NCBI GenBank assembly: GCA_037383965.1
Contig: JARROL010000001.1
Location: forward strand, 990 to 43,503
Origin: Desulfobacterales bacterium
GTDB lineage: Bacteria > Desulfobacterota > Desulfobacteria > Desulfobacterales > SG8-13
Length of the DNA stretch: 42,514 nt
Reading direction: 5' to 3'
The position numbers and the translations under genes were made by a program. How positions within the stretch are numbered: the stretch's first letter is position 1; each line of letters opens with the position of its first letter. The notes below the pieces were generated by a model. That model was not told the DNA's origin. It ran no database searches and was given only the letters and a program-made list of their open reading frames with translations. Positions 377 through 25,087 of this stretch are shown here, in pieces.

Positions 377-1636
377 CTAACTTGCAAGGTCGGTTACGGG
401 TATGACGCGCCGATAATAGGAGCCGTCCTCGAGGGATTTCAAGAGGATCTTCTGGCTGTCGGGACTGAACACCGGGTCCCAGACGGCATCACATTGATGT
501 GACCACAGTCTGTCATCCACGGCGATGGTGTATTGGCCGTTTTTTTGTACCTTGGCGGCCATACGGCTTCCGTCCGGACTGAAAACCGGTTTCCAGGCCA
601 TGTCGAGTGCATCTTTCCAGACGCCGCCGTCGGCAGCGATCCGGTATTTCCCATCCTGCTTGGTGACTGCCGCGATGCGGCTTCCGTCCGGGTTGAAGAC
701 GAGATCGGTCACCAGCTCGTTGAAGACCACCGGCCATGGGGTTGCGTCTACGGCCACCGTCCACTGGCCGTATTTCACGGCGACGATGGATGCCAGCTTG
801 GTGCCGTCGGGGCTGAACAGCTGATGCCAGAGCTGGGGAAACCGGCGGTCCCACACCATTTGACCGTCCTCGGCCAGGGCCCACTTGCCCTCGACCCGGA
901 CCGGTGCGATGACCGAATGTCTTTGCGGGTGAAAGACCGGTTCCCAGACACAGCTGAAGGTCTTGTCCCACGGCTTGCCGTCCACGGCGATGGTGTAATC
1001 ATAAAGGTTGAGCCGCACTTCAGCGGCCAGGTGCTGCCCGTCCGGGCTGACGGCCAGATTCCAGACGTTGACGAACCGGGTGTCCCAGGCCTTGCCGTCC
1101 AGCGCAGCCGAAAAGGTGCCTTCCTGAAACTTGTGCACTTCACCGGAATCCGCCGCACTCACCTGGACTGCCGCCGCTGTCTTATCGCCGTCCGGGCTCA
1201 GTGCGAAATAGGTGATGTTGCTAAAGGTTTTCTCCCAGGGTGTGTCGTTCAGCGCCATGCCGTACTGCATATCCTGCTGAAATGCGACGGCGATGCTGTC
1301 GCCGTCCCGACTGTAGAGGGGATTCCAGACGTAGCCGAATTTATTCTCCCAAGCGGTGCCGTCCACGGCAACGGTCCACTCCCCCATCTCCGAGACCAGC
1401 ACGCTCAGGCGGCCGGAGGGCGTATACCGCAGGTGCCAGGCCTTGTCGAACTCTGCCCCCCAGGGCTCGCCGTTGACACAAACGTCGAACTGACCCTCGT
1501 CGACGTTGACGATAGCGGCGATGTTTTCCCCATCAGGGCTCACGTAGGGCTCCTCGACCCAGCGAAAATTCTCCTTCCATTCTCCGAAGGGAATCCGCTT
1601 TTCACCGGTTTCCCAGTCCCAGTTGTTGATGTTCAC
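377..1636 (-). CDS. Tryptophan-rich repeat protein (about ten ~38-40 aa SPDG...AVDG.PW...F..VW.PVF repeats; PD40/TolB-like beta-propeller-like); possibly TmcD-like
   Basis: 419-aa ORF. A by-eye repeat pattern such as SPDGQHLAAEVRLNLYDYTIAVDGKPWDKTFSCVWEPVF recurs about 10 times. About 23 Trp by hand count. No signal peptide seen. Operonic with the DsrM-like cytochrome b downstream. Confidence 0.75.
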   Translation of the reverse strand: MNINNWDWETGEKRIPFGEWKENFRWVEEPYVSPDGENIAAIVNVDEGQFDVCVNGEPWGAEFDKAWHLRYTPSGRLSVLVSEMGEWTVAVDGTAWENKFGYVWNPLYSRDGDSIAVAFQQDMQYGMALNDTPWEKTFSNITYFALSPDGDKTAAAVQVSAADSGEVHKFQEGTFSAALDGKAWDTRFVNVWNLAVSPDGQHLAAEVRLNLYDYTIAVDGKPWDKTFSCVWEPVFHPQRHSVIAPVRVEGKWALAEDGQMVWDRRFPQLWHQLFSPDGTKLASIVAVKYGQWTVAVDATPWPVVFNELVTDLVFNPDGSRIAAVTKQDGKYRIAADGGVWKDALDMAWKPVFSPDGSRMAAKVQKNGQYTIAVDDRLWSHQCDAVWDPVFSPDSQKILLKSLEDGSYYRRVIPVTDLAS

Positions 1637-1714
1637 TATACTCCCTCCTTTTCATCCCACTGACCTTATTGCAGGGAATACCTCAATTTACGCAAACTGC
1701 TCTATACAGTATCC

Positions 1715-1967
1715 CATTTGAAAATTCAACACGGCCAACTCATAGCCTATGCAGATTATTATTGGGTTTACAACAGACCATTTCGGTTATGTACGCCGAC
1801 GGTGCATGGGCCGGTTACATTAGGGGTATAAATAAAAGTGTTGAATTTTTCAACAGGCGTGTTGAATAAGCCAACATCGTTTTTATTTGATAAATATTAT
1901 ATGAAATCAAAAAGTTAAGAGTCGGGCAGACGGTTGACCAGATGTCGGACTGTTTGAAATTCCAACA
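1715..1967. promoter_or_regulatory. Array of four related 17-bp palindromic sites (TGTTGAA-N3-TTCAACA type); candidate enhancer (UAS) for a sigma54 activator, or alternatively Rex-like operators
   Basis: Sites are CATTTGAAAATTCAACA (1715-1731), TGTTGAATTTTTCAACA (1839-1855, perfect palindrome), TGTTGAATAAGCCAACA (1860-1876) and TGTTTGAAATTCCAACA (1951-1967). They lie 100-350 bp upstream of the sigma54 promoter at 2067. Confidence 0.5.
1905..1917 (+). promoter_or_regulatory. IHF-like site (WATCAA-N4-TTR) in the AT-rich tract between the palindromes and the sigma54 promoter
   Basis: AATCAAAAAGTTA matches WATCAANNNNTTR and sits in an AT-rich bendable region (1880-1920). Confidence 0.3.
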
Positions 1968-2066
1968 GGCCATCTTCTTACCGCCATTCGCCACATCCGC
2001 GGTCTTCATTTATGGATATCATTAGTTTCAACAAGTTATGTCAAAATCGGCCGTGGCGTGTCGTTG

Positions 2067-2082
2067 TGGCATAGCGCTTGCT
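2067..2082 (+). promoter_or_regulatory. Sigma54 (-24/-12) promoter
   Basis: TGGCAT-agcgc-TTGCT matches TGGCAC-N5-TTGCW with exact GG-N10-GC spacing. It lies about 65 nt upstream of the ATG at 2146. Confidence 0.75.
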
Positions 2083-2145
2083 TAATAAAGCAGAAAAACA
2101 GCTCATCATTAAACCTTTAAATACATAACATAAGGAGAGTGAAAA

Positions 2146-3135
2146 ATGACAAAAAGAAGCCTGAGAAATCAACTGGGATATGGTTCCACCTACCGCAAAG
2201 GCGATCGCACGGACGTCGATACCGCGGGGGAAATCAGCTCGGTGCTCGGTGGGCAGGTCTGGTTGATCAAACCCGACAAGGAAGCCAAGTCAGCCAACCC
2301 CTGTATATGGATGCAGGCCGGTGTGGTCAAGAACAAAGACTGTAACAACTATTACGACTGTACCAGCTGCAAATATGATCGCGGCATGCGTCTGCAGGTG
2401 GAGAAGGGCAAACAGGTCAGCTGGCAGGACGCCATGCGCATGCGGCCCGAGCTTGAAAGAGTGTGTCGACACAGCCTCACCCAGCGAATTCACAACCGCG
2501 CCTGCGCCTACGACTACAAATGTGCCACCTGCGATTTCGACCAATATTTTGAAGATGTATGGGCTACGAAAACCAACACCCTCCCGTACGAAATCCAGAG
2601 CGTCAAGGGATTCGAGGTTCCCATGGGGTATTATTTCCACAATGGCCATACCTGGGCCCGGATTGAAAGCGGCGGCTGCATTCGGGTCGGACTGGATGAC
2701 TTCGCCCTTAAACTGCTGGGTCGCGCCGATGCGCTCGATCTGCCGCTGATGGGCAAGGAACTCGACCACGGTAAGGTGGGCTGGGGACTGAAGCGCAAAG
2801 ACAACTTGGCCGATGTCCTTTCTCCCATCGACGGTGTCATCGTGGAGGTGAACGCGGATGTACGGGAAAATCCTGCTTTGACCAATCAAGAGCCTTACGG
2901 TGAGGGCTGGCTGTTCATGGTGCGGACACCGGATGTCAAGGCCACCATGAAAAAGCTCATGGTAGATGTGGACAGCCTGGACTGGATGAACACGGAAGTT
3001 CGGACACTGGAAAGCATGATCGAGCAAACCGCGGGTCCTTTGGCCGCCGACGGCGGTTATCTGCAGGAAGACATTTACGGCAACCTGCCAGATCTCGGCT
3101 GGAAGAAACTGACCCAAACGTTTCTGAGAACCTAA
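2146..3135 (+). CDS. Cys-rich protein with C-terminal glycine-cleavage-H (GcvH)-like barrel; paralog 1
   Basis: Strong SD (TAAGGAGAG). Two copies of C-x12-C-x5-C-x2-C: CIWMQAGVVKNKDCNNYYDCTSC and CRHSLTQRIHNRACAYDYKCATC. The GcvH-like core is YYFHNGHTWARIESGGCIRVGLDDFALKLLG...LSPIDGVIVEVN...NQEPYGEGWLFMV. Confidence 0.8.
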   Translation: MTKRSLRNQLGYGSTYRKGDRTDVDTAGEISSVLGGQVWLIKPDKEAKSANPCIWMQAGVVKNKDCNNYYDCTSCKYDRGMRLQVEKGKQVSWQDAMRMRPELERVCRHSLTQRIHNRACAYDYKCATCDFDQYFEDVWATKTNTLPYEIQSVKGFEVPMGYYFHNGHTWARIESGGCIRVGLDDFALKLLGRADALDLPLMGKELDHGKVGWGLKRKDNLADVLSPIDGVIVEVNADVRENPALTNQEPYGEGWLFMVRTPDVKATMKKLMVDVDSLDWMNTEVRTLESMIEQTAGPLAADGGYLQEDIYGNLPDLGWKKLTQTFLRT

Positions 3136-3245
3136 ACGTTTATTGGTGCGGCAAGCAAGGCGCATCGCGTCGGTAAAGGGCTTTGCACCGATCGGGTTAT
3201 TCGGCCTGCGCTTTGTTTGCCCCCTGCAATCAGAGGAAATTCAAA

Positions 3246-4172
3246 ATGAGAAAGCCACTAGCGGAGCATAAGGCGCGGGCGAGGCAGAATCCATGTATCT
3301 GGATGCAAGCCGGTGTGGTGCGCTCAAAACACTGCCAGCTCAACTATCAGTGCACGGCCTGCCGTTACGACAAAGCCCTGCGTCGGGTGGCCGAGGAGAA
3401 CCGAATGCTGCGGAAACGCGGAGTACCGCCGCATGGCCGCAGAGCGCGCATCGTGGCCTGGAAAGATCGACTCAGGGAATTACCGTCTTGGAAACAGCCC
3501 TGCCTGCACTCCATGAAGGGCCGCATCGAATTCAGGGCCTGCACGAATGACTACAGCTGCGTTGACTGCGAGTTCGATCAGTTCTTTTACGATCAATTCA
3601 CCGTGCATGCGGTGGTCAAACCGGTGGCGGAACTCAATATCGAAGGTTTCAAAATTCCCCAGGGCTATTACCTGCATCGCGGCCATGCCTGGGTGAAAAT
3701 CGAAGAAGAAAACACCGTCCGCATCGGCCTGGACGAGTTTGCAGCCCGCACGTTCGGCCCCTTTTCCCGGATTGATACGCCCTTGATGGGCAAAACGGTT
3801 CATCAGGACCAGCCCGAAATCCGCCTGATCCGTGGGGAAAACAGGGCCGACCTGCTTTCACCGGTCAGCGGCGTTATTACCGCCACCAACCCGCGGCTGC
3901 TGGAAGACGCGCAGGTTGAAAACCGTAACGCCTACGCGGAAGACTGGCTCATTCGGGTTCATGCCGACAACCTCCGTCGAGATTTGAAAAACCTGATGAT
4001 CAGCGATGAAACCGCGACCTTTTTGACCGAAGAAGTGGAACGCCTGTATCAGGTCATCGAGGCGGCGGCCGGTCCGCTAACGGTCGACGGCGGTCGTCTG
4101 GGAAGTGACATTTACGGTAAATTACCGCAACTGGACTGGCCCACCTTGACCCGGACTTTCCTGCGCTCCTGA
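3246..4172 (+). CDS. Cys-rich protein with C-terminal GcvH-like barrel; paralog 2
   Basis: Same architecture and same Cys spacing: CIWMQAGVVRSKHCQLNYQCTAC and CLHSMKGRIEFRACTNDYSCVDC. Core is YYLHRGHAWVKIEEENTVRIGLDEFAARTFG...LSPVSGVITATN...AYAEDWLIRV. The ATG at 3246 with a GAGGAA SD is preferred over the TTG at 3183 given in the track. Confidence 0.8.
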   Translation: MRKPLAEHKARARQNPCIWMQAGVVRSKHCQLNYQCTACRYDKALRRVAEENRMLRKRGVPPHGRRARIVAWKDRLRELPSWKQPCLHSMKGRIEFRACTNDYSCVDCEFDQFFYDQFTVHAVVKPVAELNIEGFKIPQGYYLHRGHAWVKIEEENTVRIGLDEFAARTFGPFSRIDTPLMGKTVHQDQPEIRLIRGENRADLLSPVSGVITATNPRLLEDAQVENRNAYAEDWLIRVHADNLRRDLKNLMISDETATFLTEEVERLYQVIEAAAGPLTVDGGRLGSDIYGKLPQLDWPTLTRTFLRS

Positions 4173-4393
4173 TAGAAAACGGCAGAAGCCTGCGGGTCTC
4201 GCCGTTCACGGCACCGATCAAGGTGCGAACCGGTGAGGGTCGTCGCGGCTGTCAGCCGTAAAGATGGCGCATGGGTGTGGCAGCGTGCCGTTTTTTCCCC
4301 ATGCGCCGGCTTTCCACGCTTCCATAATTCCGGCATTCCAGATCCCCCGATACCCCGTTGATACTCGATTCAGGGGACCTTTCAGCACTTTGA

Positions 4394-4972
4394 TCATTTG
4401 TTTTGGACAAGAATGATTTCGAGCTTGCTGAGTTCATCCTGCAGCAGGACCCTGCAGTGTCGGCAAAGGTGATTCGACTTACGGTCAACATCCCGTATGC
4501 TGCGGCAGTAATGCATGATGCAGGTCCGTTCCGGGCAGTGGCGCAGCGTGAAAGTATGGCCCAGTTCGTGAACGGCTTCTTTGCCGAGACGGCAGTGCAT
4601 CGCCGGATTGGTAGCCGCGGCATCGAGGCCCTCCTGCAGGCGATAGGTGGATATGATAGCGGCCTTGCCCCCCAGTTGGGCTTCGCCGTAAACGTGAGTG
4701 AGAATCGGTATGAACAGGTCGGCCTGGGTGATGGCGATGATCTTCAGTGCGTCATCCGGCGCCATTGCGGCGAGCTTTTGAATAATCACGGTTGAGTGAT
4801 ACTGCCGACGAACCGGATCCAGTGCAAAGTCGACATCCGCCAGCAGCGGCTTGATTTCACTCCGGCAACCGAATACCCGCTCGATTTCTCTAGCGACCAA
4901 TCCACACAACCCCGGGTCAATCACGCCGATGGGTGCGATGTGAATACTGTATGCGGAAAGTCGGCTCGTCAA
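4394..4972 (-). CDS. amzA: Archaemetzincin-family zinc metallopeptidase (peptidase M54)
   Basis: HELGHTFTLRHCPERTCIMHYCRSIRDVDRKSNHLCRHC matches the HExxHxxGxxHC...C.M...CxxC signature. Its start overlaps the stop of the upstream response regulator (ATGA). Confidence 0.8.
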   Translation of the reverse strand: MTSRLSAYSIHIAPIGVIDPGLCGLVAREIERVFGCRSEIKPLLADVDFALDPVRRQYHSTVIIQKLAAMAPDDALKIIAITQADLFIPILTHVYGEAQLGGKAAIISTYRLQEGLDAAATNPAMHCRLGKEAVHELGHTFTLRHCPERTCIMHYCRSIRDVDRKSNHLCRHCRVLLQDELSKLEIILVQNK

Positions 4973-6312
4973 TCTTCTCTTTGGAGGTTGTATCGTTTGA
5001 TTTTACTGTAAAGGGTCGTGCGGTCGATATCCAGGATTTTCGCACATCTGGCGATATTCCAATCGTTTTGGTCCAGAATCCGTTGGATGTGAAACTTTTC
5101 GACCTCTTTGAGGGAGTCATCCGGTGGCAGGGCAATTTTCTGGGTGCAGTAAAACGGCAAATCTTCGGATCGGATTTTGCGATGTTTTCCGATCACGATC
5201 GCTCTTTCAATCGCATTTTCGAGTTCGCGGACGTTTCCGGGCCAATCATGGAGCATCATTTCATCCATCGCCTCCCGCTGAATGCCGTCAATCGGCTTGT
5301 TGGTTTCCTGGCTGTAGTGGTTTATAAAATGGTCGGCCAGCAGCGGAATGTCCTCCTTGCGCTCCCGCAGTGATGGCATGCGAAAGGAAATCACGTTGAG
5401 CCGGTAAAAAAGGTCTTCTCGAAATAGGCCTTCTTTGATCGCCGTCTCCAGATTCCGGTTGGTGGCGGCGATGACACGGAAATCGGCCTCGATCGGTTGA
5501 GTGCCGCCCACGCGATAAAAAACACGGTCCTCCAGGACCCGCAACAAATCAATCTGCATGCGCATACCGATTTCACCGATTTCATCCAGGAAAAGGGTGC
5601 CGCCATGGGCCAGCTCCAGGCGCCCTTTCTTGGTTTCCTTGGCGTCCGTGAAAGCACCCTTCTGGTGACCGAAGAGTTCGGTTTCCATTAAGTGTTCCGG
5701 AATGGCCCCGCAGTTGACGGTCACAAAAGGGCCCTCGCAGCGGGGGCTGTTGGAGTGGATGGCCTTGGCGGCCAGCCCCTTGCCAGTACCGGTTTCTCCG
5801 GTGATCAACACGGTGCTGTCCGTGGCGGCTACATCGGTGATCAGGTCAAATATGGCATGCATGGATCCGGACTGCCCAATCATGCTCTCGAAGCGGGCGC
5901 GCTCTTTGCTGGCTTCTTTCAGGTACAGCATTTCTCGCGCCTGGGCCTGCTGGGCGACGATCTTCTCGATCAATATCCCCAATTCGTTGGGATCGAAGGG
6001 CTTGAGCAGGTAGTCATCAGCGCCGTTTTTCATGGCCTCGATGGCCGTGGAAATTGAGCCGTATGCGGTAATCATCACAACGGCCACGTCCGGTTCGTCG
6101 TTTTTGACCTGCCGCAGGACGTCCAGACCGCTCATCCCTTCCATCTTGATGTCGACCAGCATTATGTCAAAACGTGACTGGGTCAGCTTTTTCAACGCTT
6201 CCTCTCCGCTGGCGGCCGCGTCCACTTTGTATTCATCCCGCTCAAGCCAGCCGGCCAGGGATTCACGCATGATCAATTCATCATCGACAATCAGAATCTT
6301 GGTGTTGTTCAT
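4969..6312 (-). CDS. Sigma54-dependent response regulator (NtrC family: REC + AAA+ + Fis-type HTH)
   Basis: REC domain (ILIVDDE...DIMLVDIKM). Walker A GETGTGKG. GAFTDA loop (a GAFTGA variant). LFLDEIGE. C-terminal HTH (WNIARCAKILDIDRTTLYSKIKRY). The ATG at 6312 behind GGGTGGAG is preferred over the GTG at 6324. Confidence 0.9.
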   Translation of the reverse strand: MNNTKILIVDDELIMRESLAGWLERDEYKVDAAASGEEALKKLTQSRFDIMLVDIKMEGMSGLDVLRQVKNDEPDVAVVMITAYGSISTAIEAMKNGADDYLLKPFDPNELGILIEKIVAQQAQAREMLYLKEASKERARFESMIGQSGSMHAIFDLITDVAATDSTVLITGETGTGKGLAAKAIHSNSPRCEGPFVTVNCGAIPEHLMETELFGHQKGAFTDAKETKKGRLELAHGGTLFLDEIGEIGMRMQIDLLRVLEDRVFYRVGGTQPIEADFRVIAATNRNLETAIKEGLFREDLFYRLNVISFRMPSLRERKEDIPLLADHFINHYSQETNKPIDGIQREAMDEMMLHDWPGNVRELENAIERAIVIGKHRKIRSEDLPFYCTQKIALPPDDSLKEVEKFHIQRILDQNDWNIARCAKILDIDRTTLYSKIKRYNLQRED

Positions 6313-7906
6313 TTGGGTCTCCACCCTCGGCTTGCGATTCCTGCGTCCGCTGTTTCAAAGGCAGTTCAACGGTAAAAACGGTACCCTCCCCGACCTTTGA
6401 GTCCACCCGCATGGCGCCGCCGTGCTCCTGAACAATTCCGTAGGCCACCGAAAGACCCAAGCCGACGCCTTTGCCCTTTTTCTTGGTGGTGAAAAAAGGC
6501 TCGAAAAGCCGCGGCAGGTTTTGCCGGGGGATACCGTGGCCGGTGTCCCGGAAGGCTACTGCGACCGCGTTTGCTCCGGACGCCGACCGGGTTTGTACCG
6601 TCAAGACGGCGTTTTGGGCACTCTCCATGGCCTCGGCGGCATTGGAGATGATATTCATGAAGACTTGTTGGAGTTGATCTTCGGATCCGACAATCTGCGG
6701 TATGTGAGGGTCGAGGTCTTTTTCAACCTTGATGTTGTGTATTTTGAGCAGGTTTGAATTGACCATGAGCGTTTTCTCCACCAGCCGGTTCAAATCCAAG
6801 GGAGTCAGTTCTATTTTGGTCTGTCTGGAAAAGGCAAGCAAATTGGACGCAATCCGGCTGACGCGGCGGGTCTCGGTCTCCATGAGTGTCAGATACCGCG
6901 TGATACGTTCGCTCTCTTTGTGCGTGATTTTTTCTTCGGCGTAAAGCCGTTTGATCAGCAGTATTAAATTGAGTATCCCGGCGATGGGGTTGTTGATTTC
7001 ATGCACGACCGACGCCGAAAGCTTGCCGAGGGACGCCATCTTGTCCTGGTGCAGCAGTTTCTCGTGCGTTTCCTTCAATTGACGGGTGCGTTCGACCACC
7101 ATCTGTTCCAGGCGCCGAGTGATTTTTTCCTCTTCTTTTTTTCGATCCGTAATATCGCGGCTGACTTCGATGAATTTGGATAACTTGCCGCTTTTTTCCC
7201 AGATGGGGTAAATGGTGATCTCCATGTAACGATGCTCGCCGCGCTTGTTGATCCTTGACATGACGCGTTGGCTGGGACGCCGGTTTCGGATGGCCTCGTT
7301 CAGGGGGCAGACCACCGCATCGCGGCTGCACTGCAGGTTTGTTTTCTGGAAAACCTCGTGGCACTTGCGGCCGATCACCTCATCCCGGGTATAATACATT
7401 TTTTCTAAAAAGGTTTCATTGACTTCGATGATGTCCATATCCGGGTTGAGAACCAGAATAAAATCTTCGATACCATTTAGAATGGTTTCAACCTCCTGGT
7501 TGCGTTCTCGTAATTTTCTTTCTTCGATGCCGATGGCTTGCCAGAAAAGCTCGAACACATCGAAGGCCAGGACCCGAATGTGGGCCGGCCGTTTGTTGAG
7601 AATGTCCCACAGAATATAGTCGTCTGGAACCAGAATAATAATGAGCCGGATGTCGAATTTCGGATCACAGAGGTCCTGATAATCCTCTACGGTTTCAAGG
7701 CCCAGTTTCCGGGCCAGGACCATGCCGGGGGCCTGCGCATCCCTATCGGCAACGGCCCGTATACGGGCTCCGACATCGCCTTTTTCGGAAGGAAATGTCA
7801 TTTTCTTCAGTAATTCAAGACACAAATCACCCCCGCCCACGAGACCGATGTTGATCGTAGAGGGCGCCTTGTCGGTTATGAAAATGTGCGGTTCCTTTTT
7901 CGGCAT
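6281..7906 (-). CDS. Cytoplasmic sensor histidine kinase (N-terminal Rossmann-like domain + PAS + HisKA + HATPase_c)
   Basis: H-box HEINNPIAGI. N/G boxes ISNAAEAM, DTGHGIP, GKGVGLGLS. PAS-like segment ILNGIEDFILVLNPDMDIIEVNETFLEKMYYTRDEVIGRKCHEVF. No TM helices. The track start is 7915, but the ATG at 7906 is better spaced from the AGGAAG SD. The 3' end overlaps the regulator gene. Confidence 0.85.
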   Translation of the reverse strand: MPKKEPHIFITDKAPSTINIGLVGGGDLCLELLKKMTFPSEKGDVGARIRAVADRDAQAPGMVLARKLGLETVEDYQDLCDPKFDIRLIIILVPDDYILWDILNKRPAHIRVLAFDVFELFWQAIGIEERKLRERNQEVETILNGIEDFILVLNPDMDIIEVNETFLEKMYYTRDEVIGRKCHEVFQKTNLQCSRDAVVCPLNEAIRNRRPSQRVMSRINKRGEHRYMEITIYPIWEKSGKLSKFIEVSRDITDRKKEEEKITRRLEQMVVERTRQLKETHEKLLHQDKMASLGKLSASVVHEINNPIAGILNLILLIKRLYAEEKITHKESERITRYLTLMETETRRVSRIASNLLAFSRQTKIELTPLDLNRLVEKTLMVNSNLLKIHNIKVEKDLDPHIPQIVGSEDQLQQVFMNIISNAAEAMESAQNAVLTVQTRSASGANAVAVAFRDTGHGIPRQNLPRLFEPFFTTKKKGKGVGLGLSVAYGIVQEHGGAMRVDSKVGEGTVFTVELPLKQRTQESQAEGGDPNEQHQDSDCR

Positions 7907-7989
7907 ACAGAGCATCTTCCTTTCGAATGGGGATTCACTAGCATAGAATCATCTACATTGCAATTCACCCGTTGATCATACACCGTTGG

Positions 7990-8590
7990 TTAGGCGCATC
8001 GAATACTGGTTTTTTCATCTGCACTGATGATGCAGTCATTGGGCCGAAGTCGTTTTCCGTTCCGTAGGCCCTGGTAGAGATCCAAAACACGGCTGGCCTT
8101 TTGCGCAAAATCTGGATCGCTAGGAAAGATCCAGCTGCGATATTGCTACGGATTTATGGCATCCTGGCTCATCCAGCGCCAAACCTTAGCGCCACTGATG
8201 GCGGCTACATTACCGTTTTTATCAGCTTAGCGGGCATTGTCAGCATTGCTGAGCCGAGAAAAGGGGAGGTTATTTTCGCCAGGCATCTGGCAAGCCCAAG
8301 CGTTAACCTCCATGACCACTTTAGGGAGAAAAACGACTCGGTCTCCCGCGTCTTGGACGATCCTGGAGACCGGCCAAGCGTTCTTCATAGAAGCGTTTGC
8401 GCCACTTGCTGATGATCTGTCGCGGCACCTCGAGGCGTTCACCGATTTGTTTGTTTTCCATGCCTTCGGCAGCGAGCAAAATGGCTTTGGCGCGAACGAC
8501 TTCAAAATATGGTGACGTATACTTCCGCGTGATTCGTAGCAAGGCCTTTTTCTCATGTGCCGCAAGCTCTATTAAAAAAGGGCTATTTCT
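7990..8590 (-). pseudogene. Decayed, 3'-truncated IS630-family transposase (N-terminal HTH region only)
   Basis: Minus-strand fragments lie in different frames with internal stops: ...IELAAHEKKALLRITRKYTSPYFEVVRAKAILLAAEGMENKQIGERLEVPRQIISKWRKRFYEERLAGLQDRPRRGRPSRFSP / FLPKVVMEVNAWACQMPGENNLPFSRLSNADNAR* / ISGAKVWRWMSQDAINP*QYRSWIFPSDPDFAQKASRVLDLYQG...ISADEKTSIRCA*. No DDE catalytic part follows. Confidence 0.75.
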
Positions 8591-8775: not shown

Positions 8776-8807
8776 TTGACAGTACTTTCGACGATATGCC
8801 ATATAAC
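8776..8807 (+). promoter_or_regulatory. Candidate sigma70-type promoter of the hdrL-like operon
   Basis: TTGACA (8776-8781), an 18-20 nt spacer, then CATATAAC. The spacer length is suboptimal. Confidence 0.3.
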
Positions 8808-8817
8808 TCCCTTGGCA

Positions 8818-8882: not shown

Positions 8883-8982
8883 CGCCAAGCATCTTTTATT
8901 GTTGAACTTTTATCCGCCGGCGTATCGCGTGTTTTTCGTCTCAGCGTGTAAGCTCGGCATCAAAAGGGTCAGGATAGATCTT

Positions 8983-11900
8983 ATGAGCAAGAACATAATT
9001 GTTGGATCAGCTTTGGTTGTCGGCGGCGGCATCGCCGGAATGCAGGCAGCTCTGGATTTGGCCGATTCGGGCTACCTGGTTCACCTTGTCGAAAAATCAT
9101 CCGCCATCGGCGGCGTGATGAGCGAACTGGACAAGACCTTTCCGACCAACGACTGTGCCATGTGAATTATCTCGCCCAAACTGGTCGAGGTCGGCCGGCA
9201 TCTCAACATCAATCTGATCACCTGTGCCGAAGTTGAAACGGTATCAGGAACACCCGGAAATTTTAAGGTCACGATCAACAAAGCCCCTCGGTTTGTGGAC
9301 CCGGCAAAGTGCACCTCATGCGGCGACTGCATCGAGGTTTGCCCGGTTTCCCTTCCCGATGAGTACGACCACGGTTTTTCCGCCCGCAAAGCCATCTACA
9401 AGAAATACGCCCAGGCGATCCCCGGCGCTTTTACCGTGCACAAGATGGACAAGGCTCCCTGCCGCCTGGCCTGTCCGGCAGGCTTAAACGTGCAGGGCTA
9501 TGTGCAGATGGTGGGGGCCGGGAAATATAAAGAGGCCCTTAAAATTATCATGGAGGATCTGCCCCTGCCCGGGGTTCTCGGACGCATCTGCCCCCACGGT
9601 TGTGAAGACGCCTGCCGCCGCTGCGAAGTCGACGATCCGGTGGCCATCCGTGACCTGAAGCGGCTGGCGGCCGACCAGGTGGACCCACGGGAAGTGGAGA
9701 TCAAGTGTCTGCCGCAGCGCAAGGAAACGGTGGCGATCATCGGCTCGGGCCCCGCGGGGCTCTCGGCGGCGTATCACCTGATCCGCAGGGGAATCAAGTC
9801 GACGATTTTCGAGGCCTTGCCCCAGGCGGGCGGCATGTTGCGGGTCGGCATTCCGGAACATCGCTTGCCCAGGGAGGTTCTCGACAGGGAAATCGAGCTG
9901 ATCACCAACCTGGGAGTCGACATTAAAGTCAACACGCCCTTCGGAGCGGATTTATCGCTGGATGATCTCTTCGAGCAGGGCTTCAAGGCGGTCTATATTG
10001 CCATCGGCGCCCATAAGGGCATCAATTTGGGCATACCGGGAGAAAAATCGAAGGGGGTTCGGCAGGGCGTCGATTTCCTCAGAGAAGTCAATCTGACCGG
10101 CAAGGCCGACGTCGGTAAAAATGTCGCCATCATCGGCGGCGGCAACGTGGCCATCGACGTGGCCCGCTGCGCGGTTCGCCTGGGCGCCGAGACGGTCAAT
10201 ATCATCTACCGGCGCTCCAGGGCCGAAATGCCCGCCTGGGAAGAGGAAATTCAGGCCGCCGAGGACGAGGGCGTCAACCTCACCTACCTGTCCGCGCCCC
10301 AGGAAGTATTGGTCGAAGACGGTCGGGTGGTAGGCCTGCGCTGCATCCGCATGAAGCTCAGCGACGTCGACTCTTCCGGTCGCAGGAGACCGACTCCCAT
10401 CCCCCACAGCGAGTACGAGATCGACATCGATCAGCTCATTCCGGCCATCGGTCAGAAACCGGATCTCTCCGCCCTGGCGGACGTGGCCGGTCTGGACACG
10501 ACGCGGTGGGGCACCATGGAGGTGGATGCCGTCACCTATGCTACCGGGCGGGAAGGGGTTTTTGCCGGTGGCGATGTCCAGACGGGTCCCTGGGTGGCCA
10601 TTGGCGCCATCGCCGCCGGAAAAGAGGCCGCCGAGTCGATCCAGCGTTATTTCGATAAGCGCGATATGGCTGCCGACCGGGAGCCGATCTACAAGGAAAA
10701 CCCCGTTTATCGGCCGATCCCGGCCGATGCCAACCGCACCGCGCGCGCCAAGATGCCGGCCCTGCCGGTGGTCGATCGCCGGGGTAACTTCAAAGAGGTC
10801 GAGCTGGGTTACGCGGAAGCCGCAGGGCAGTCGGAGGCCCATCGCTGTCTCAATTGCGGCTATTGCTGCGAATGCTACCAGTGCGTCGAAGCCTGCAAAC
10901 CGCAGGCGGTGACCCTGGAGACCCACGCCGAACAGGCGCAAAAGATCGAATTGGAAGTGGGGTCCGTGATCCTGGCGCCCGGGTTCAAACCTTTCGATCC
11001 GTCAAAGTTCGATGCATACAACTACAGCAAACACCCCAATGTGATCACCTCCATGGAAATGGAGCGCTTTTTGTCGGCTTCCGGCCCGACGGGCGGTCAC
11101 CTCGTACGGCCTTCCGACCACAAAGAGCCGCAGAAGATCGCCTGGTTCCAATGCATCGGGTCTCGTGACCTGAACCGCTGCGACAACTCCTACTGTTCTT
11201 CGGTGTGCTGCATGTACGCCATCAAGGAAGCCGTCATCGCCAAGGAGCACAGCGGGGGTAACCTCGACTGCGCCGTTTTCTTCATGGACATGCGCACGCC
11301 GGGCAAGGATTTCGAGCGATTTTACGACCGGGCCCGGGAAAACGATGATGTTCGGTTCATCCGCAGCCGGGTTCACACCATCGACCCGGTGGGGGACACT
11401 GGCGACCTCGAGCTGCGCTATGTTACCGAGAGCGGCGAGATGATAACCGAGACCTTCGACATGGTGGTGCTTTCGATCGGCATGGAGGTTGGGTCTGAAG
11501 CCGTGGCGTTAGCCCAGAGACTTGGATTCGAGCTGACCGAAGGGCGTTTCTGCCAGACCGAAACCTTTGAACCGGTGGCCACCTCCAAGCCGGGCATCTT
11601 CGCTTGCGGGGCGTTCCAGGGACCAAAGGACATTCCGCAGTCGGTCGTTGACGCGAGTGCGGCGGCCTCGGCCGCCGGCGAGATTTTGTCCGCGGCCCGG
11701 TTCACGGCTACCAAAACTCCGGAACTGATCCCGGAAACCAACGTTATCGGCGATCGACCGAGGATCGGGGTTTTCGTCTGCCGCTGCGGCATCAACATTG
11801 CCGGGGTTGTCGATGTTCCGGCAGTACGGGATTACGCTGCTACACTGCCCTTTGTGGATTACGTATCCGACAATCTCTACTCCTGCTCCCAGGATACCCA

Positions 11901-13437
11901 GGACACGATGGCGGCGATTATCAACAAGGAAAAACTCAACCGGGTGGTGGTGGCGGCCTGCACGCCCAAAACACACGAACCGCTGTTCCAGGAGACTCTG
12001 ATCAACGCCGGCCTCAACAAGTACCTTTTCGAGATGGCCAACATCCGCAACCAGGATTCGTGGGTTCACAAGAAAAATCCAGAACTGGCCACCCAGAAGG
12101 CCAAAGACCTAGTGCGCATGGCCGTGTCCAAGGTCGCGTTGATGGAGCCGCTCAAAGAGGCCGAACTTGATGTCACTCCAGTTGCCATGGTTTTAGGCGG
12201 CGGTGTGGCCGGTATGGCCGCAGCCCGCAGTCTGGCGAGGCAGGGCTATGAGACGCATTTGGTCGAAAAAAGCGATCGCCTCGGCGGCCAGGCGCTCAAC
12301 CTTTACCACACGGCCCAAGGGGAGGATGTCCAGCAGAAGCTTGCCGGTCTCATCGAGGATGTCAGCCGCGAGGAGAACTTCCATGCTCACCTGAACACCA
12401 CCTTGACCGGGGTTAGCGGCTTTGTGGGCAACTTCCAATCAACCCTGTCCCACAACGGCGACACCCAGACCTTAGATCACGGGGTGGCCGTTCTGGCCAC
12501 CGGGGCCAACCCACTCATACCCGAAGAGTACGAATACGGCAAGGATCCCCGCATCCTGACCAGCTTGGAGCTGGATCGCAAGTTTATCGAAAACGACCCG
12601 GCGCTGGAAAAGCTGAAGACTGCGGTTTTCATCCAGTGTGTCGGCTCTCGGGAACCCCAACGACCGTATTGCTCCAGGGTGTGCTGCACCCATTCGGTGG
12701 AAACCGCTCTGGAGCTCAAGAAACGCAATCCCGATATGCAGATCTTTATTTTGTATCGGGACATGCGGACCTACGGCGAGCGCGAGTACCTCTACAAAAA
12801 GGCCCGTGCGGCCGGGATCGTTTTTATCCGATACAAACTGGAGCAAAAACCCCAGGTCAGCGTGACCCAAGAAGTGATCCGTGTGGCGGTAATCGATCAT
12901 GTTTTGGGCTGGCCGGTGGAGATCCAGGCCGACCTTCTCACGCTGGCCTCGGCCGTTATACCGGCCGGCGATGAAAGTCTGGCTCAGTTCTTCAAGGTGC
13001 CGATGAACGAAGACGGCTTCTTCGTCGAGAAACACGCCAAGTTGGGGCCCTCCGAGTTCGCCACCGACGGTGTGTTCCTGTGCGGCATGGCCCACTATCC
13101 CAAGCCGATCGACGAGTCCGTGGCCCAAGGCCGGGCAGCGGCCTCCCGCGCCTTGACGTTGCTGGCCCAGAAAACGATTCACACCAGCGGTACCGTGGCC
13201 CTAGCAGATCCTTTCATGTGCAGTCGCTGCGGAGTGTGCGTCGCCATTTGCCCTTATTCGGCGCCGTTTTTTACCGAGGCCGGTCCAAATGCCGGCAAGG
13301 CCGAGGTCAATCCGATTCTGTGCAAGGGCTGCGGTTTGTGCGTGGCTTCCTGCCGCTCCGGGGCGATCCATTTAAAGGGCTTTGACAACAACCAGATTTT
13401 TGCTCAGCTCTTTTCCCTGAGCGAAGAGGTGGGATAG
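8983..13437 (+). CDS. hdrL: Large HdrA-like flavoprotein fusion (HdrA N-module + GltD/NfnB-like NAD(P)H module + two HdrA-type modules + ferredoxin domains); probable selenoprotein with UGA-Sec at 9163-9165 (HdrL-type)
   Basis: ORFs 8776-9165 and 9295-13437 are in the same frame, separated only by TGA at 9163-9165. Read-through gives ...[23 protein letters not shown]..., matching the HdrA motif TFPTNDCSMCILAPK. The ATG at 8983 ([27 protein letters not shown]) follows AGGA. The GltD-like part is [15 protein letters not shown]...[26 protein letters not shown] and [14 protein letters not shown]. There is a second Rossmann fold, [15 protein letters not shown]. Confidence 0.85.
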
Positions 13438-13474
13438 TGCCTATCCATAAATCCTTAAAACCTATGGAGTTATC

Positions 13475-13906
13475 ATGTCCGAGTGGGAACCGAAAATCGT
13501 CGCATTTTTGTGCAATTGGTGCAGCTATGGTGCAGCGGATCTGGCCGGCATCAGCCGGATGGAATATCCGCCCAACATTCGGGTCATCCGGATTCCCTGC
13601 ACAGGGCGGATGAGCCCCAAGTTCTTTCTCGCGGCGCTGCGCGAGGGCGCAGACGCTGTCTGGGTATCCGGGTGACATCCCGGCGAATGCCATTACCTGG
13701 AAGGTAATTACTACGCTCGCCGAAAGTTCGCCCTGTTTCAGAATCTGATGGAGCACATGGGAATCGAGCCCGGGCGGATTCAATTCTCATGGGTTTCCTC
13801 GGCCGAGTCGACCAAGTTCGTCGAGGTGGTCAACGATGTCACTGCGAAGGTCAAGGGGCTGGGGCCCAATCAAAACTTCATTAAAACCGAAGCCAAGGTG
13901 GCTTAG
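13475..13906 (+). CDS. mvhD: MvhD-like [2Fe-2S] hydrogenase delta-subunit-type electron-transfer protein (FlxD-like); probable selenoprotein with UGA-Sec at 13673-13675
   Basis: The ORF stops at TGA 13673-13675 but the frame stays open to TAG 13904-13906. Read-through gives [19 protein letters not shown]...IRIPCTGRM...[28 protein letters not shown]..., matching MvhD GCHPGDCHY. Confidence 0.85.
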
Positions 13907-13907
13907 T

Positions 13908-14852
13908 ATGTCATATATCGTCAAGATCAAAGAGATTTCCGAAAAGATCCTCAAAGACTGCACGGTGGAAATGGTCATCGGCTTTCGCAAGGGAACCGTT
14001 CCGTTGATGAACGAACCTTGCTTTGCGAGGACCCCCGATCAGGTGGATCAGTTTGTCTGGGATGGAAACTGCTGTATAAACCTTGCCAACTATCTGGCTG
14101 ATCGCAAAGAAAAGATCGGAATCGTGGCCAAGGGGTGTGATTCCCGCAACATCGTCACGCACATTCTCGAAAACAAAATCAAACGCGAGCAACTCTACAT
14201 TATCGGCGTGCCGTGCCTGGGAATGATTGACAAGCGACGAATTGCGCAGGATTTCGCCGACGAGATCATTGCGGTTGAAGAGGATAACGGCAAGGTTATC
14301 GTCAAAGGGCATGAGCGGGAAAAAGTCTACGACAAGTCTGCAGTGCTTCAGGAAAATTGTGCCATCTGTATTCATCGTAACCCGGTTATCCACGACGAAC
14401 TGGTGGCCGAACCGGTGGTGGAGCAGATCGAAGTGGACCGCTACGAGGACGTGCGTCGTGTCGAATCCATGGCGCCGGGTGAAAAATGGGCCCATTTCGA
14501 GGAGATGCTGGCGCCCTGCATCCGTTGCTATGCCTGTCGTAACGCCTGCCCACTGTGTTACTGTCCCACGTGCTTTGTGGATGAACACCGCCCCCAATGG
14601 GTCAACAAGGGCCAGGACCCGGTTGACGTGCGCACGTTTCATTTCCTGCGCGCTTACCACTGCGCCGGACGCTGCACCGACTGCGGCGCCTGCGAGAGAG
14701 TCTGCCCGGTCGGCATCCCGGTGCGTCAGTTCACCAAAAAGCTTGAAAAAGATGCCCGGGAACTTTTCGACTGGGAGGCCGGTTTGACGCTGGACAAGCG
14801 CCCGGTGCTCGATTTTTACAAACCTAACGATCCGGATGAGTTCATTAAATAA
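13908..14852 (+). CDS. Fe-S cluster protein (4Fe-4S dicluster motifs), FlxC-like subunit
   Basis: MSYIVKIKE... start at ATG 13908, 1 nt after the mvhD stop. The 24-codon N-terminal extension in the track overlaps mvhD. Motifs CIRCYACRNACPLCYCPTC and CTDCGACERVCPVGIP. Confidence 0.75.
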   Translation: MSYIVKIKEISEKILKDCTVEMVIGFRKGTVPLMNEPCFARTPDQVDQFVWDGNCCINLANYLADRKEKIGIVAKGCDSRNIVTHILENKIKREQLYIIGVPCLGMIDKRRIAQDFADEIIAVEEDNGKVIVKGHEREKVYDKSAVLQENCAICIHRNPVIHDELVAEPVVEQIEVDRYEDVRRVESMAPGEKWAHFEEMLAPCIRCYACRNACPLCYCPTCFVDEHRPQWVNKGQDPVDVRTFHFLRAYHCAGRCTDCGACERVCPVGIPVRQFTKKLEKDARELFDWEAGLTLDKRPVLDFYKPNDPDEFIK

Positions 14853-14861
14853 AGATAGACA

Positions 14862-14941
14862 TAGTGTTTGGTGTTTAGAGCTTAGTGTTTGGTAATCGTT
14901 GTCCGATACCAAACACGAAACACCAAATAGCAAACACCAAA
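14862..14941 (+). repeat. Intercistronic nested inverted-repeat element built from GTGTTTGGT / ACCAAACAC units
   Basis: The left arm has three copies of (A)GTGTTTGG(T). The right arm has three of CCAAACAC / AAACACCAAA. The inner perfect 10-bp hairpin is GTGTTTGGTA (14885-14894) / TACCAAACAC (14907-14916). The outer pair is TTTGGTGTTT / AAACACCAAA. Confidence 0.8.
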
Positions 14942-14957
14942 TTCATAGGTTCACGTA

Positions 14958-16025
14958 ATGAAGATTGTAAAAATTGACAAGAAGAGCTTGAGCACCGACC
15001 TCGACCGACTGCGTGAGACGTATCGACTTTTCGGGCCGGTCAAAGGGCCGCAGTATTACGATTTTCAGCTGCTGGGTCCTGGACAAACGCCCGACTTGGA
15101 CTTTCTCAATACGCGCATGTCGGCCAAGTCTCTGGTTTATCCGCAATCGGAGGTGATGCTCGATTACAGCCTGGACGAAAGTCAAGATGATCACCACATA
15201 ATGAAGGAAAGCGCACGGGACTATTCCCCCCGGGCTGTCATCGGGATCAGGCCCTGCGATGTCAAGGGATACCTCCTGGTGAAGCGCAATTTCGACACCC
15301 CCGACTTCAAGGACCCTTACTGGGTCCGCAACTTTGCGGCCACCACCCTCGTGGGCTATGGCTGTGATGAGCCTTGCAGCAGCTGTTTCTGCACCTCCGC
15401 CGGATCGGGACCTTTTCACGAGGAAGGCTTGGACGTGCTTCTGGTCGATGCCGGAGACAGCTTTTTAGCCAAGATCATCTCCGAGAAGGGGGAAAAGTTG
15501 GCCGCCGCCGCCGGCTGGGACAAACCGGCTGCAGACGGGACCGAACAGGAGATTGACGCTCGCCGGCAGGCAGCAGAAGCCAAGATGAACGCCGCGATGG
15601 AAACGGACCGGTTGGCCGCACAGGACACGCTCGATCTTTACGACGCGCCCTTCTGGGAAGATGTCTCTTTTTCCTGCATCAATTGCGGAACGTGTACTTA
15701 CGTCTGCCCGACCTGCTGGTGTTTCGACATTCAGGACGAGGTCCGCGGGAAAAAAGGAAAACGACTGCGCATCTGGGATAGCTGCATGTATCCGCTGTTC
15801 ACCCTCCACGGCTCCGGCCACAATCCTCGGGGGACGAAACTGCAGCGGGTCCGCCAGCGGTTCATGCACAAGCTCAAATATTATGTGGACAAGTATGAAG
15901 ACGGGATACAGTGCTCCGGTTGCGGTCGTTGCGTGCGCCTGTGTCCGGTGAACATCGACATTCGTCGGGTTGCCCGACTGATGAACAGCCACGGCCAGGA
16001 CGCTGTGGCCTGCGAGGTGAAGTGA
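14958..16025 (+). CDS. Fe-S protein of the sulfhydrogenase-beta (HydB) / AsrA type, FlxB-like subunit
   Basis: CINCGTCTYVCPTCWCFD...RIWDSCMYPLFTLHGSGHNPR...CSGCGRCVRLCPVNIDI. Confidence 0.75.
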   Translation: MKIVKIDKKSLSTDLDRLRETYRLFGPVKGPQYYDFQLLGPGQTPDLDFLNTRMSAKSLVYPQSEVMLDYSLDESQDDHHIMKESARDYSPRAVIGIRPCDVKGYLLVKRNFDTPDFKDPYWVRNFAATTLVGYGCDEPCSSCFCTSAGSGPFHEEGLDVLLVDAGDSFLAKIISEKGEKLAAAAGWDKPAADGTEQEIDARRQAAEAKMNAAMETDRLAAQDTLDLYDAPFWEDVSFSCINCGTCTYVCPTCWCFDIQDEVRGKKGKRLRIWDSCMYPLFTLHGSGHNPRGTKLQRVRQRFMHKLKYYVDKYEDGIQCSGCGRCVRLCPVNIDIRRVARLMNSHGQDAVACEVK

Positions 16026-16921
16026 TGACGACGCCGCATGTTGAATCCGTCATTCCCGGTACCGGAGGGATGACGGTGACGAATCCTTATCTCCCGTATC
16101 CGGTACGAATCGAGGAGATAACCACCGAAACCGAAGACCGTAACCTGAAGACGTTCAAACTGGTGTTCTTGAATACGGCCGACGAAAAAAAGTTTGCCTA
16201 TAAGGCCGGCCAGTTCGCCGAGCTCTCGATAACCGGCAAAGGTGAAATACCGATCGGGATTGCCTCTTCGCCGACGGAAAAAGGCTTTCTCCTTTTTACC
16301 GTCAACCGGGTCGGGCTGGTTTCCACCGCCCTGCACAACATGCGGGTGGGCGACATCATGGGTGTTCGCGGTCCCATGGGCAATTGGTACCCTTGGGAGG
16401 CAATCGAGGGCAAAAGTGTTGTTATCATCGGGGGCGGTTTTGCTTTCACGACCCTGCGGTCGTCCATCGTTTACATGCTCGATCCGAATAACCGGCCAAA
16501 ATTCAAAGATATACATGTCATATATGGTGCCCGGACACCGGGCATGCTTCTCTACCGCGACGAACTGGCGGCCTGGGAGAAACGCGACGACATCTACATG
16601 CACATCACTGTGGACGCCACCGACGATCCGACCTGGAAGTACAATACCGGTTTCGTGCCGACGATCACCGACCAAAAAGCGCCGCCGGCTGACGGGGAAA
16701 CCTATGCCATCGTGTGCGGTCCTCCGATCATGATCAAGTTTACACAGCCGGTACTCGAGAACCTCGGTTACTCGTACGACCACATCATCATGTCTCTGGA
16801 AAATCGGATGAAATGCGGTATCGGTATCTGCGGCCATTGCAATATCGGCAAGGAATACGTGTGCAAGGACGGGCCGGTCTTCACGCTGGAACAGTTGAGC
16901 CGTATGCCGAAAGAGTATTGA
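16025..16921 (+). CDS. FAD/NAD(P)-binding oxidoreductase with C-terminal [2Fe-2S] site (HydG / AsrB / PyrK family), FlxA-like subunit
   Basis: The ATG at 16025 overlaps the upstream stop (TGATG). The track start at 15911 would overlap the upstream gene by 115 nt. Motifs YKAGQFAELS...GEIPIGIASSP, VVIIGGGFAF and the C-terminal CGIGICGHCNIGKEYVCKDGPVF. Confidence 0.8.
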   Translation: MTTPHVESVIPGTGGMTVTNPYLPYPVRIEEITTETEDRNLKTFKLVFLNTADEKKFAYKAGQFAELSITGKGEIPIGIASSPTEKGFLLFTVNRVGLVSTALHNMRVGDIMGVRGPMGNWYPWEAIEGKSVVIIGGGFAFTTLRSSIVYMLDPNNRPKFKDIHVIYGARTPGMLLYRDELAAWEKRDDIYMHITVDATDDPTWKYNTGFVPTITDQKAPPADGETYAIVCGPPIMIKFTQPVLENLGYSYDHIIMSLENRMKCGIGICGHCNIGKEYVCKDGPVFTLEQLSRMPKEY

Positions 16922-16939
16922 CCGGCCTGTTTTTTAATG

Positions 16940-16968
16940 TTGACATCACAGATTCAATACGTTAATAA
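16940..16968 (+). promoter_or_regulatory. Sigma70-type promoter for dsrC
   Basis: TTGACA (16940-16945), 17-nt spacer, TAATAA (16963-16968). It lies about 75 nt upstream of the dsrC ATG. Confidence 0.5.
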
Positions 16969-17043
16969 ACCAACTTTAATCATCGCAATAGGCGGACTGG
17001 CGTAAGCCACTGGAATAATTTATTTTTTAAAGGAGGGTATTGT

Positions 17044-17361
17044 ATGCCAACAGTTGAATTCATGGGAAAAGCATTCACCGTCGACGAAGACGGGTTCATC
17101 GATTCCTACGAAAACTGGAGCCAGGAATGGGTACAGTGGGTCAAGAAAGAAGAGGGCATCGACGAACTCAACGAGGAGCACCAAAAAGTCATCAAGGTCC
17201 TGCGTGAATACTATGAGAAAAACGGAATTGCCCCGATGGTTCGGGTTCTTTCCAAGGTTACCGGTTTCAAACTGAAGCACATTTACGAGTTGTTTCCCTC
17301 CGGCCCGGGCAAGGGAGCCTGCAAGATGGCCGGTCTTCCCAAGCCGACCGGTTGTGTCTGA
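17044..17361 (+). CDS. dsrC: DsrC (TusE/DsrC/DsvC family) with both C-terminal redox cysteines
   Basis: 105 aa with a strong SD (AAAGGAGGG). The C-terminus ...GPGKGACKMAGLPKPTGCV has the Cys-x10-Cys arm with the penultimate Cys that is diagnostic of true DsrC. Confidence 0.9.
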   Translation: MPTVEFMGKAFTVDEDGFIDSYENWSQEWVQWVKKEEGIDELNEEHQKVIKVLREYYEKNGIAPMVRVLSKVTGFKLKHIYELFPSGPGKGACKMAGLPKPTGCV

Positions 17362-25066: not shown

Positions 25067-25087
25067 CATATTCTGAAAGGAAACAAG

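Follow-up and report, generated by a model that had tools for sequence, protein, structure and literature searches.

The DNA analyzed here (hereafter the window) is a stretch of 42,514 nucleotides (nt) from a Desulfobacterales bacterium, and the genes in question, par1 and par2, lie next to each other on its forward strand within positions 2146–4172. A first-pass annotation had described them as adjacent paralogs of shared architecture, and a BLASTP comparison bore this out: the two proteins share 40% identity along the whole of their common length (E = 5 × 10−87). par1 (2146..3135) starts with ATG and encodes 329 amino acids (aa) in four parts, i.e. an N-terminal extension (aa 1–48), a duplicated Cys4 module (aa 49–140, with the Cys codons within 2302–2370 and 2464–2532), a barrel of the GcvH fold (aa 150–272; 2593–2961), and a helical tail (aa 273–329; 2962–3132). 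par2 (3246..4172) is of like architecture and differs from par1 in lacking the N-terminal extension and in carrying a 16-aa insert that separates its two Cys4 halves. The open reading frame (ORF) of par2 was called from 3183 to 4172, but because par2 homologs are 308 aa long, the true start is most likely the ATG at 3246, from which par2 has 308 aa. Both proteins are soluble and cytoplasmic.

Each protein contains the spacing C-x12-C-x5-C-x2-C twice, as had been claimed, with Cys at 53, 66, 72, 75 and 107, 120, 126, 129 in par1 and at 17, 30, 36, 39 and 86, 99, 105, 108 in par2. Profile-profile comparison with hhalign showed that the two Cys4 halves are homologous to each other and align in register (probability 98.5%, E = 3 × 10−15). 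Across 67 diverse relatives, the only invariant columns were these eight Cys together with W55, H168, G182, and D184. Conservation is concentrated in the Cys domain, which points to this domain as the functional core. No curated family in Pfam or NCBIfam matched the Cys module or the tail significantly. The best Pfam match of the module, zf-CHY, stayed below threshold (E = 0.029), a marginal likeness of this kind being seen in 9 of 29 module sequences, and further sub-threshold matches were to zinc-ribbon and CHY families. A sequence-profile search of the module against the PDB gave no hits at E ≤ 10, and the ferredoxin-type motif CxxCxxCxxxCP is absent from both par1 and par2. The net charge of the module varies from −4 to +10 (median +2) and is not consistently basic. 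The earlier suggestion of two metal or Fe-S sites is plausible for such a domain.

The central segment matched Pfam GCV_H above the Pfam cut-off (E = 1.2 × 10−21 for par1 and 4.5 × 10−18 for par2). Since a first AlphaFold run with a shallow alignment (63 sequences from two tight clades) gave a poor model (mean pLDDT 57, N-terminus unusable), a more diverse alignment was used for a second run, and this model was taken for all structural comparisons (mean pLDDT 83, pTM 0.72, residues 50–329 mostly above 90). When the whole model was searched against the PDB with Foldseek, H-proteins were the sole matches, with no match to the Cys module or the tail. The barrel superimposed on the solved H-proteins 1onl, 3ab9, and 3klr with a TM score of 0.91 and an rmsd of 1.5–1.6 Å over about 126 residues, at a sequence identity of 25–33%. 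In each Cys4 half of the model, a CxxC is placed at the N-terminus of a helix. The GcvH-fold segment predicted in the first-pass annotation was thus recovered by both methods, and the C-terminal tail noted there is kept in homologs. In summary, par1 and par2 combine a Cys4+Cys4 domain that has no curated description with a lysine-less barrel of the H-protein fold and a helical tail.

In a gap-free HMMER alignment to the GcvH of T. thermophilus, D219 of par1 occupies the column of the lipoyl lysine, with K218 one residue before it; in par2 the column is occupied by E198 (3837–3839). Among 120 homologs per paralog family, lysine was found in this column in none of the par1 family (which has D, H, E, N, Q, S, or G instead) and in two of the par2 family. 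The preceding column holds K in 109 of the 120 par1-type sequences and R, Q, E, or T in the other 11, and nearly always S or G in the par2 family. Two residues before the canonical position, R is present in all 120 members of either family. Both the alignment and the AlphaFold model place the hairpin tip of par1 at K218-D219 (2797..2802), and these two residues form the entire turn in the model, so that lipoylation of K218 would be geometrically allowed but is no conserved property of the family. Both proteins scored below the NCBIfam cut-offs, with 75.4 (par1) and 61.9 bits (par2) against 115.85 for TIGR00527, and 77.8 and 64.2 bits against 117 for NF002270. No family match to gcvT, gcvP, or lpd, nor to a lipoate ligase of the BPL_LplA_LipB type, was found among the window ORFs scanned with Pfam (those of about 130 aa or more, plus the shorter dsrC), and gcvT/P/L genes were not seen in the gene tables of related loci. 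As the lipoyl-lysine column holds lysine in 0 of 120 and 2 of 120 homologs, par1 and par2 are neither H-proteins nor LbpA. The replacement of the lysine by Asp and Glu had been read correctly by eye. The family-wide loss, together with the low NCBIfam scores, supports the earlier and more cautious statement that the two are probably not lipoyl carriers, and on sequence grounds we conclude that they are not. The annotated GcvH function was therefore rejected for want of the canonical lysine and of scores above the equivalog cut-offs, and databases misname both proteins as ‘glycine cleavage system protein H’.

A sigma-54 (−24/−12) promoter motif, TGGCATAGCGCTTGCT, lies at 2067..2082 on the forward strand, 64 nt upstream of the par1 ATG. 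It is the only match to a sigma-54 promoter in the window, where 0.09 were expected, and a sigma-54 motif was found 54–101 nt upstream of the start in 74 of 79 related Desulfobacterales loci, in agreement with the promoter that had been proposed above the pair. Further upstream, two adjacent palindromic activator-type sites of the form TGT-N11-ACA, TGTTGAATTTTTCAACA and TGTTGAATAAGCCAACA, occupy 1839..1876 (starts at 1839 and 1860, about 300 and 280 nt before the par1 start), and a third, TGTTTGAAATTCCAACA, is located at 1951..1967 (about 190 nt before it). These three palindromes have no other zero-mismatch counterpart in the 42.5-kb window, and their positions are conserved in L001, L003, and many of the 79 loci (L-numbers designate related loci, and P-numbers, used below, database proteins). 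No sigma-70-like promoter was found in 1600–4500, and a pattern matching a terminator-like hairpin with a T-run follows at 4274..4291 on the forward strand, about 100 nt past the par2 stop. Together, these features predict that par1-par2 is a self-contained bicistronic sigma-54 operon closed by the hairpin. The predicted operon combines a −24 GG and a −12 GC at the correct spacing with upstream sites and a cognate AAA+ activator, as sigma-54 control demands.

The family is large, with more than 2,000 clusters at 90% identity matching par1 and more than 1,200 matching par2. Best matches came from Desulfobacterales and were 70–80% identical to par1 and about 60% identical to par2; the only database names among them were ‘glycine cleavage system protein H’ and, from JGI, ‘CHY-type Zn-finger’. 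One protein, P0329 (348 aa), consists of an NAD-dependent epimerase N-terminus fused to the second half of a par2-like protein and is probably a frameshift or assembly artefact. With one genome per GTDB species, relatives were encoded in 430 stretches. The best 80 of these, from which the taxonomy was drawn, all belong to Desulfobacterales and include Desulfonema limicola, Desulfobacterium sp. N47, an Olavius symbiont, and Ca. Desulfatibia; one metagenome-assembled genome among the relatives is 96% identical. No literature on the family was found among open-access papers and bioRxiv preprints, and a term search found no mention of GcvH or glycine cleavage in the papers on the D. autotrophicum HRM2 genome and the D. 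vulgaris sigma-54 regulome. To our knowledge the family has no characterised function, as had been asserted, and the Cys module and the tail have no curated model.

Three genes 3′ of the pair are convergent with it. The nearest, amzA (4394..4972, minus strand), encodes an archaemetzincin-like zinc protease (Peptidase_M54) related to the M. kandleri archaemetzincin 2x7m (E = 2.4 × 10−24); its HExxH, Met-turn, and Cys4 motifs are preserved. The start of amzA overlaps the stop of the gene for an NtrC-type response regulator and sigma-54 activator (REC, AAA+, HTH_8; 4969..6324, minus strand), the presumed binder of the TGT-N11-ACA sites. The third gene (6281..7915, minus strand) encodes a cytoplasmic histidine kinase with a 140-aa N-terminal domain followed by a Cys-containing PAS, HisKA, and HATPase, the core of which resembles ZraS/AtoS-type kinases. 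Residues 1–140 have no Pfam match and contain a glycine-rich motif, GLVGGGDLC, that might bind a dinucleotide. This domain is conserved in Desulfobacterales kinases and not in distant cassettes; because of this restriction, the signal perceived by the kinase cannot be deduced from it.

Further downstream, hdrL (8984..13437, forward strand) encodes an HdrA / NfnB-GltD-like fusion. Its in-frame TGA at 9166–9168 lies inside the HdrA motif ...TNDCAM-U-IISPK, splits the gene into two entries in ORF lists (8776–9165 and 9295–13437), and almost certainly specifies selenocysteine, a residue reported for HdrL1/L3 of Desulfobacterium autotrophicum (PMC2702500). Genes for Flx-like Fe-S and NAD/FAD subunits and for DsrC (17044–17361) follow at 13836..17361 on the same strand. 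The adjoining two-component system, amzA, and the nearby Hdr-like/DsrC cluster were therefore located where the first-pass annotation had placed them. A shared regulon of par1/par2 and hdrL was considered and dropped, since neither a sigma-54 promoter nor TGT-N11-ACA sites precede the hdrL operon; hdrL is a neighbour of the pair and not a member of the same regulon.

This arrangement recurs within the order, although all neighbourhood counts given here depend on the tblastn thresholds and on flanks of 8–10 kb. The tandem pair was present in each of the 70 related loci with room for it, and amzA and the regulator in 28 of 39 loci with at least 8 kb downstream. HdrL was encoded within 10 kb in 16 of 24 Desulfobacterales loci with full flanks; in several loci hdrL is on the other side and a second activator-like gene lies just upstream of par1. 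In L001, par2 and amzA are separated by an insert (12473–14250) with genes for an ArsR-type regulator, the permease ArsP, and a small thioredoxin.

Metagenomes were also scanned with the divergent GcvH-fused subfamily, which yielded 80 loci at 28–47% identity whose neighbours were identified by tblastn. Histidine kinase, AmzA, sigma-54 activator, and the Cys-GcvH-like gene occurred together in at least three gene orders: (i) kinase-AmzA-activator-gene; (ii) kinase-activator-AmzA-gene; and (iii) the gene convergent with AmzA-activator-kinase. In the 24 divergent loci with both flanks, the activator was found 22 times, AmzA 22 times, and the kinase 21 times. A strict sigma-54 motif was present at most 350 nt upstream in 41 of 65 loci (background 0.006 per equal-sized window), and Hdr-like genes within 9 kb in 10 of the 14 loci with full flanks. 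That the order is permuted at such low identity speaks for a functional unit and against inherited synteny. The conserved unit, down to about 30% identity, is kinase, sigma-54 activator, archaemetzincin, and Cys8-GcvH-like gene, and clusters of the Hdr/HdrL/MvhD type lie beside this cassette in about two thirds of loci. Co-occurrence of the pair with a sigma-54 promoter, with kinase, activator, and amzA, and with Hdr-like genes, which had been set in advance as the test on which the proposal could fail, was thus observed both in Desulfobacterales and in distant, reordered loci. Most divergent loci carry a single copy of the gene, so tandem duplication is a feature of Desulfobacterales; the claim of tandem paralogs stands for this order and not for most distant relatives.

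A single-sequence search with the Cys module alone among 1.84 billion representatives returned 225 clusters. In the majority, the module is joined to a GcvH-like segment and the tail. Other architectures were (i) REC+TPR+Cys module; (ii) TPR+Cys module+HisKA+HATPase; (iii) a double module with a GcvH-like segment; and (iv) stand-alone modules. Fusion to REC was seen in 8 of 52 representatives and fusion to HisKA/HATPase in 1 of 52, the module forming the C-terminus of REC-TPR response regulators and taking the sensor position in the one histidine kinase. The Cys domain is thus mobile among signalling proteins.

The REC-TPR-Cys proteins are a large family themselves, and their genes lie in one common layout in 6/6 loci: a gene for a protein of about 370 aa with a sigma-54 DNA-binding domain comes first, and genes for a kinase and a sigma-54 activator precede the REC-TPR-Cys gene, which is followed by HdrCB/HdrA or HdrL-like, MvhD, and hydrogenase or formate dehydrogenase genes. 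A TGGCA-N6-TTGC motif occurs 27–93 nt upstream of the Cys-module gene in each of these loci that was checked. More generally, all eight distant Cys-module genes or loci inspected individually have a sigma-54 motif directly upstream, and most are beside Hdr/HdrL/MvhD clusters. For the proteins of about 370 aa (L086:1427–2533, L087:2189–3304, L088:6919–8052 on the minus strand, also in L089–L091), the sigma-54 DNA-binding domain was the sole match; possibly they are short or divergent forms of RpoN that serve this cassette specifically. The kinases at L086:2535–4484 and L090:3530–5524 carry an N-terminal [FeFe]-hydrogenase-like domain (Fe_hyd_lg_C plus FeS), which suggests sensing of H2 or redox state; elsewhere the kinase of the cassette has either a PAS domain or no sensor that could be recognised. 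A subfamily (P0301, P0359, P0377, P0335, and P0297; e.g. L084:1066–2181) has an extra N-terminal segment of 60–80 aa that begins with MKCPFLEE..V.YC.A and has further Cys and no Pfam match. The C-termini of P0288, P0320, and P0375 (REC-TPR-Cys and TPR-Cys proteins) are tryptophan-rich, with the motif WWW(S/P)YWS.

Other elements of the window were noted in passing. Between the kinase gene and hdrL (about 8100–8560, minus strand) lies a degenerate transposase-like remnant, of which a 73-aa ORF (8321–8542) matches HTH_29/HTH_28/HTH_23/HTH_32 N-terminal domains, domains that we take to resemble those of IS630-type transposases; the rest is broken by stops. A UPF0047 gene (17448–17843) and an AsnC/NirDL-like gene of the siroheme decarboxylase type (18064–18522) follow dsrC. 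Two adjacent large GTPase genes at 23105–26869 (653 and 593 aa; MMR_HSR1/Dynamin_N) look like a bacterial dynamin-like pair and are unrelated to par1/par2.

With respect to function, par1 and par2 may be metal- or Fe-S-centred redox sensors or effectors tied to Hdr-type complexes, a reading to which we give a probability of roughly 0.4. Each Cys4 half would coordinate a single metal centre, be it Zn or an Fe-S cluster, and the Cys domain would act as a redox- or metal-responsive sensing unit, with the lysine-less barrel and the tail serving as a docking scaffold, not as a cofactor carrier. The kinase/activator pair would switch par1/par2 on, and these would then report on or adjust the cytoplasmic thiol, Fe-S, or electron-bifurcating (Hdr-type) machinery. 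By analogy with PspA and ZraP in their own sigma-54 circuits, they would probably also feed back on the kinase and activator. AmzA may process or turn over par1/par2, and the duplicated pair of Desulfobacterales probably forms a heteromer.

Several points weigh against this reading. The link to Hdr is one of gene neighbourhood throughout; about one third of loci have no Hdr-like gene within 9–10 kb, and the hdrL operon of the window has neither the sigma-54 promoter nor the activator sites of the pair. In some loci, e.g. L003, the pair and its promoter are present with no cassette genes near. The promoters and activator sites, like the terminator, are pattern matches in the sequence, and the sole pointer to breadth across phyla is a Dehalococcoidia label on one REC-TPR-Cys protein. 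Moreover, control by a dedicated sigma-54 switch would fit a metabolic effector just as well as a regulator.

In the main rival, par1/par2 are lipoate-free redox carriers or protein substrates of HdrL/Flx-type complexes and stand in the electron or sulfur path, with the Cys8 domain (as Fe-S or redox-active thiols) replacing the lipoyl dithiol and the barrel docking on the Hdr-like enzyme in the way that LbpA docks on sHdr. The recurrence of HdrL/HdrA/MvhD neighbourhoods across rearrangements and the DsrC and Flx-like genes of the window fit such a role, and so does the precedent of LbpA, which is GcvH-like, essential for sHdr, and often present as two paralogs, as here (PMC6067878). This rival is weakened by the fusions of the same Cys domain to REC-TPR and a histidine kinase, which mark it as a domain of signalling and not of electron transfer, and by the separate transcription unit, par1/par2 being apparently not co-transcribed with hdrL. 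Given also the third of loci without nearby Hdr genes and the missing ferredoxin-type motif, we consider this rival doubtful, if serious. Less likely than these is a role as effectors of thiophilic-metal stress (Zn, Cd, Cu, As), induced through sigma-54 by the logic of ZraSR/ZraP and with AmzA, a zinc enzyme, as part of the response. Eight invariant Cys, the marginal CHY zinc-finger likeness together with the JGI label, the ArsR/ArsP/thioredoxin insert of L001, and the ZraS/AtoS-like kinase core are all compatible with it; however, fixed spacing and 70–80% identity across an order would be expected of a structural or sensing site more than of bulk sequestration, the neighbourhood has no conserved metal transporter, and the Hdr association would be left unexplained. 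We therefore rate it as improbable.

A further less likely reading, and to our minds a still more improbable one, sees zinc-finger regulators that bind nucleic acids, with the Cys module as DNA- or RNA-binding output and the barrel as a ligand-sensing or oligomerisation domain. The C-terminal position of the module after REC-TPR in response regulators would suit an output domain, as would the CxxC at the helix N-termini of the model and the sub-threshold zinc-ribbon and CHY matches. Yet the module also occupies the sensor position of a histidine kinase, is not consistently basic, and showed no likeness to a solved DNA-binding domain in the profile search. The public annotation as true glycine-cleavage H-proteins or lipoyl carriers could draw on the GCV_H score and on the position of K218 within the two-residue turn. 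Against it stand the absence of the canonical lysine, the lack of conservation of K218 and its absence from par2, scores of 62–78 bits that are well under the cut-offs of 116–117, and the absence of gcvT/P, lpd, and lipoate-ligase families from the scanned ORFs of the window; its probability is negligible. The redox sensor or effector reading is accordingly retained. A bolder extension of it, which we regard as unlikely, would make the pair part of a signalling/redox system of anaerobes not recognised before, and a lipoate-free, reductive counterpart of LbpA/sHdr: a descendant of H-protein in which a Cys8 metallo-domain stands for the lipoyl arm and which, with kinase, activator, and archaemetzincin, senses or services Hdr/HdrL complexes in anaerobes. 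If true, this would establish a new sensor domain common to kinases and response regulators and would place archaemetzincins in a physiological context for the first time.

Some consequences are more immediate. Thousands of entries named ‘glycine cleavage system protein H’ cannot carry lipoate, and the name needs correcting. For two-component systems, the Cys8 module is a candidate for a new sensor domain. In sulfate reducers and other anaerobes, little is understood of how HdrL/HdrA-type complexes are regulated and of their physiological partners, and the conserved cassette adjoining them offers concrete genes and proteins to study. Archaemetzincins, for which we know of no biological role, gain a constant genetic partner. 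The sigma-54 promoter and TGT-N11-ACA sites are defined precisely enough for direct testing.

Among known systems, the closest in fold is GcvH (PF01597), with which the central 120 residues of par1/par2 share the hybrid barrel-sandwich fold. They differ from it in the loss of the lipoyl lysine, in the added 90-aa Cys8 domain and 57-aa tail, in having no link to gcvT/P, in the conserved sigma-54 motif upstream, and in scoring below the NCBIfam equivalog cut-offs. Recruitment of a GcvH-fold protein to a non-glycine role is also seen in the streptococcal and staphylococcal GcvH-L, which gave the weakest significant Foldseek match (PDB 5a35, E = 1.5 × 10−5). GcvH-L has retained the lipoyl lysine and functions together with a macrodomain/sirtuin operon; unlike par1/par2, it has neither the Cys module nor the sigma-54 cassette.

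LbpA resembles par1/par2 in being a GcvH-like protein encoded beside Hdr-like clusters, frequently as two paralogs. However, all 95 LbpAs of sHdr systems keep the lipoyl lysine and are accompanied by dedicated LplA-like ligases (PMC6067878), and for this retention of the lysine par1/par2 cannot be counted among them. par1/par2 have lost this lysine, and the scanned ORFs of the window included no ligase gene; conversely, LbpA has no Cys8 module. The hosts of par1/par2 are anaerobic sulfate reducers with reductive-type HdrL/Flx/DsrC, and the clusters beside genes of this type are of the HdrL/HdrA-MvhD type and not sHdr.

In genetic layout, the best parallels are ZraSR/ZraP and PspF/PspA, sigma-54 circuits that each target a small effector with an additional feedback role. 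As in these, a kinase/activator pair stands beside a short sigma-54-dependent operon for a non-enzymatic-looking protein. par1/par2 differ in being cytoplasmic, in joining an H-protein fold to a Cys8 domain, and in a feedback that is so far proposed by analogy, and their cassette has an archaemetzincin gene as a constant member.

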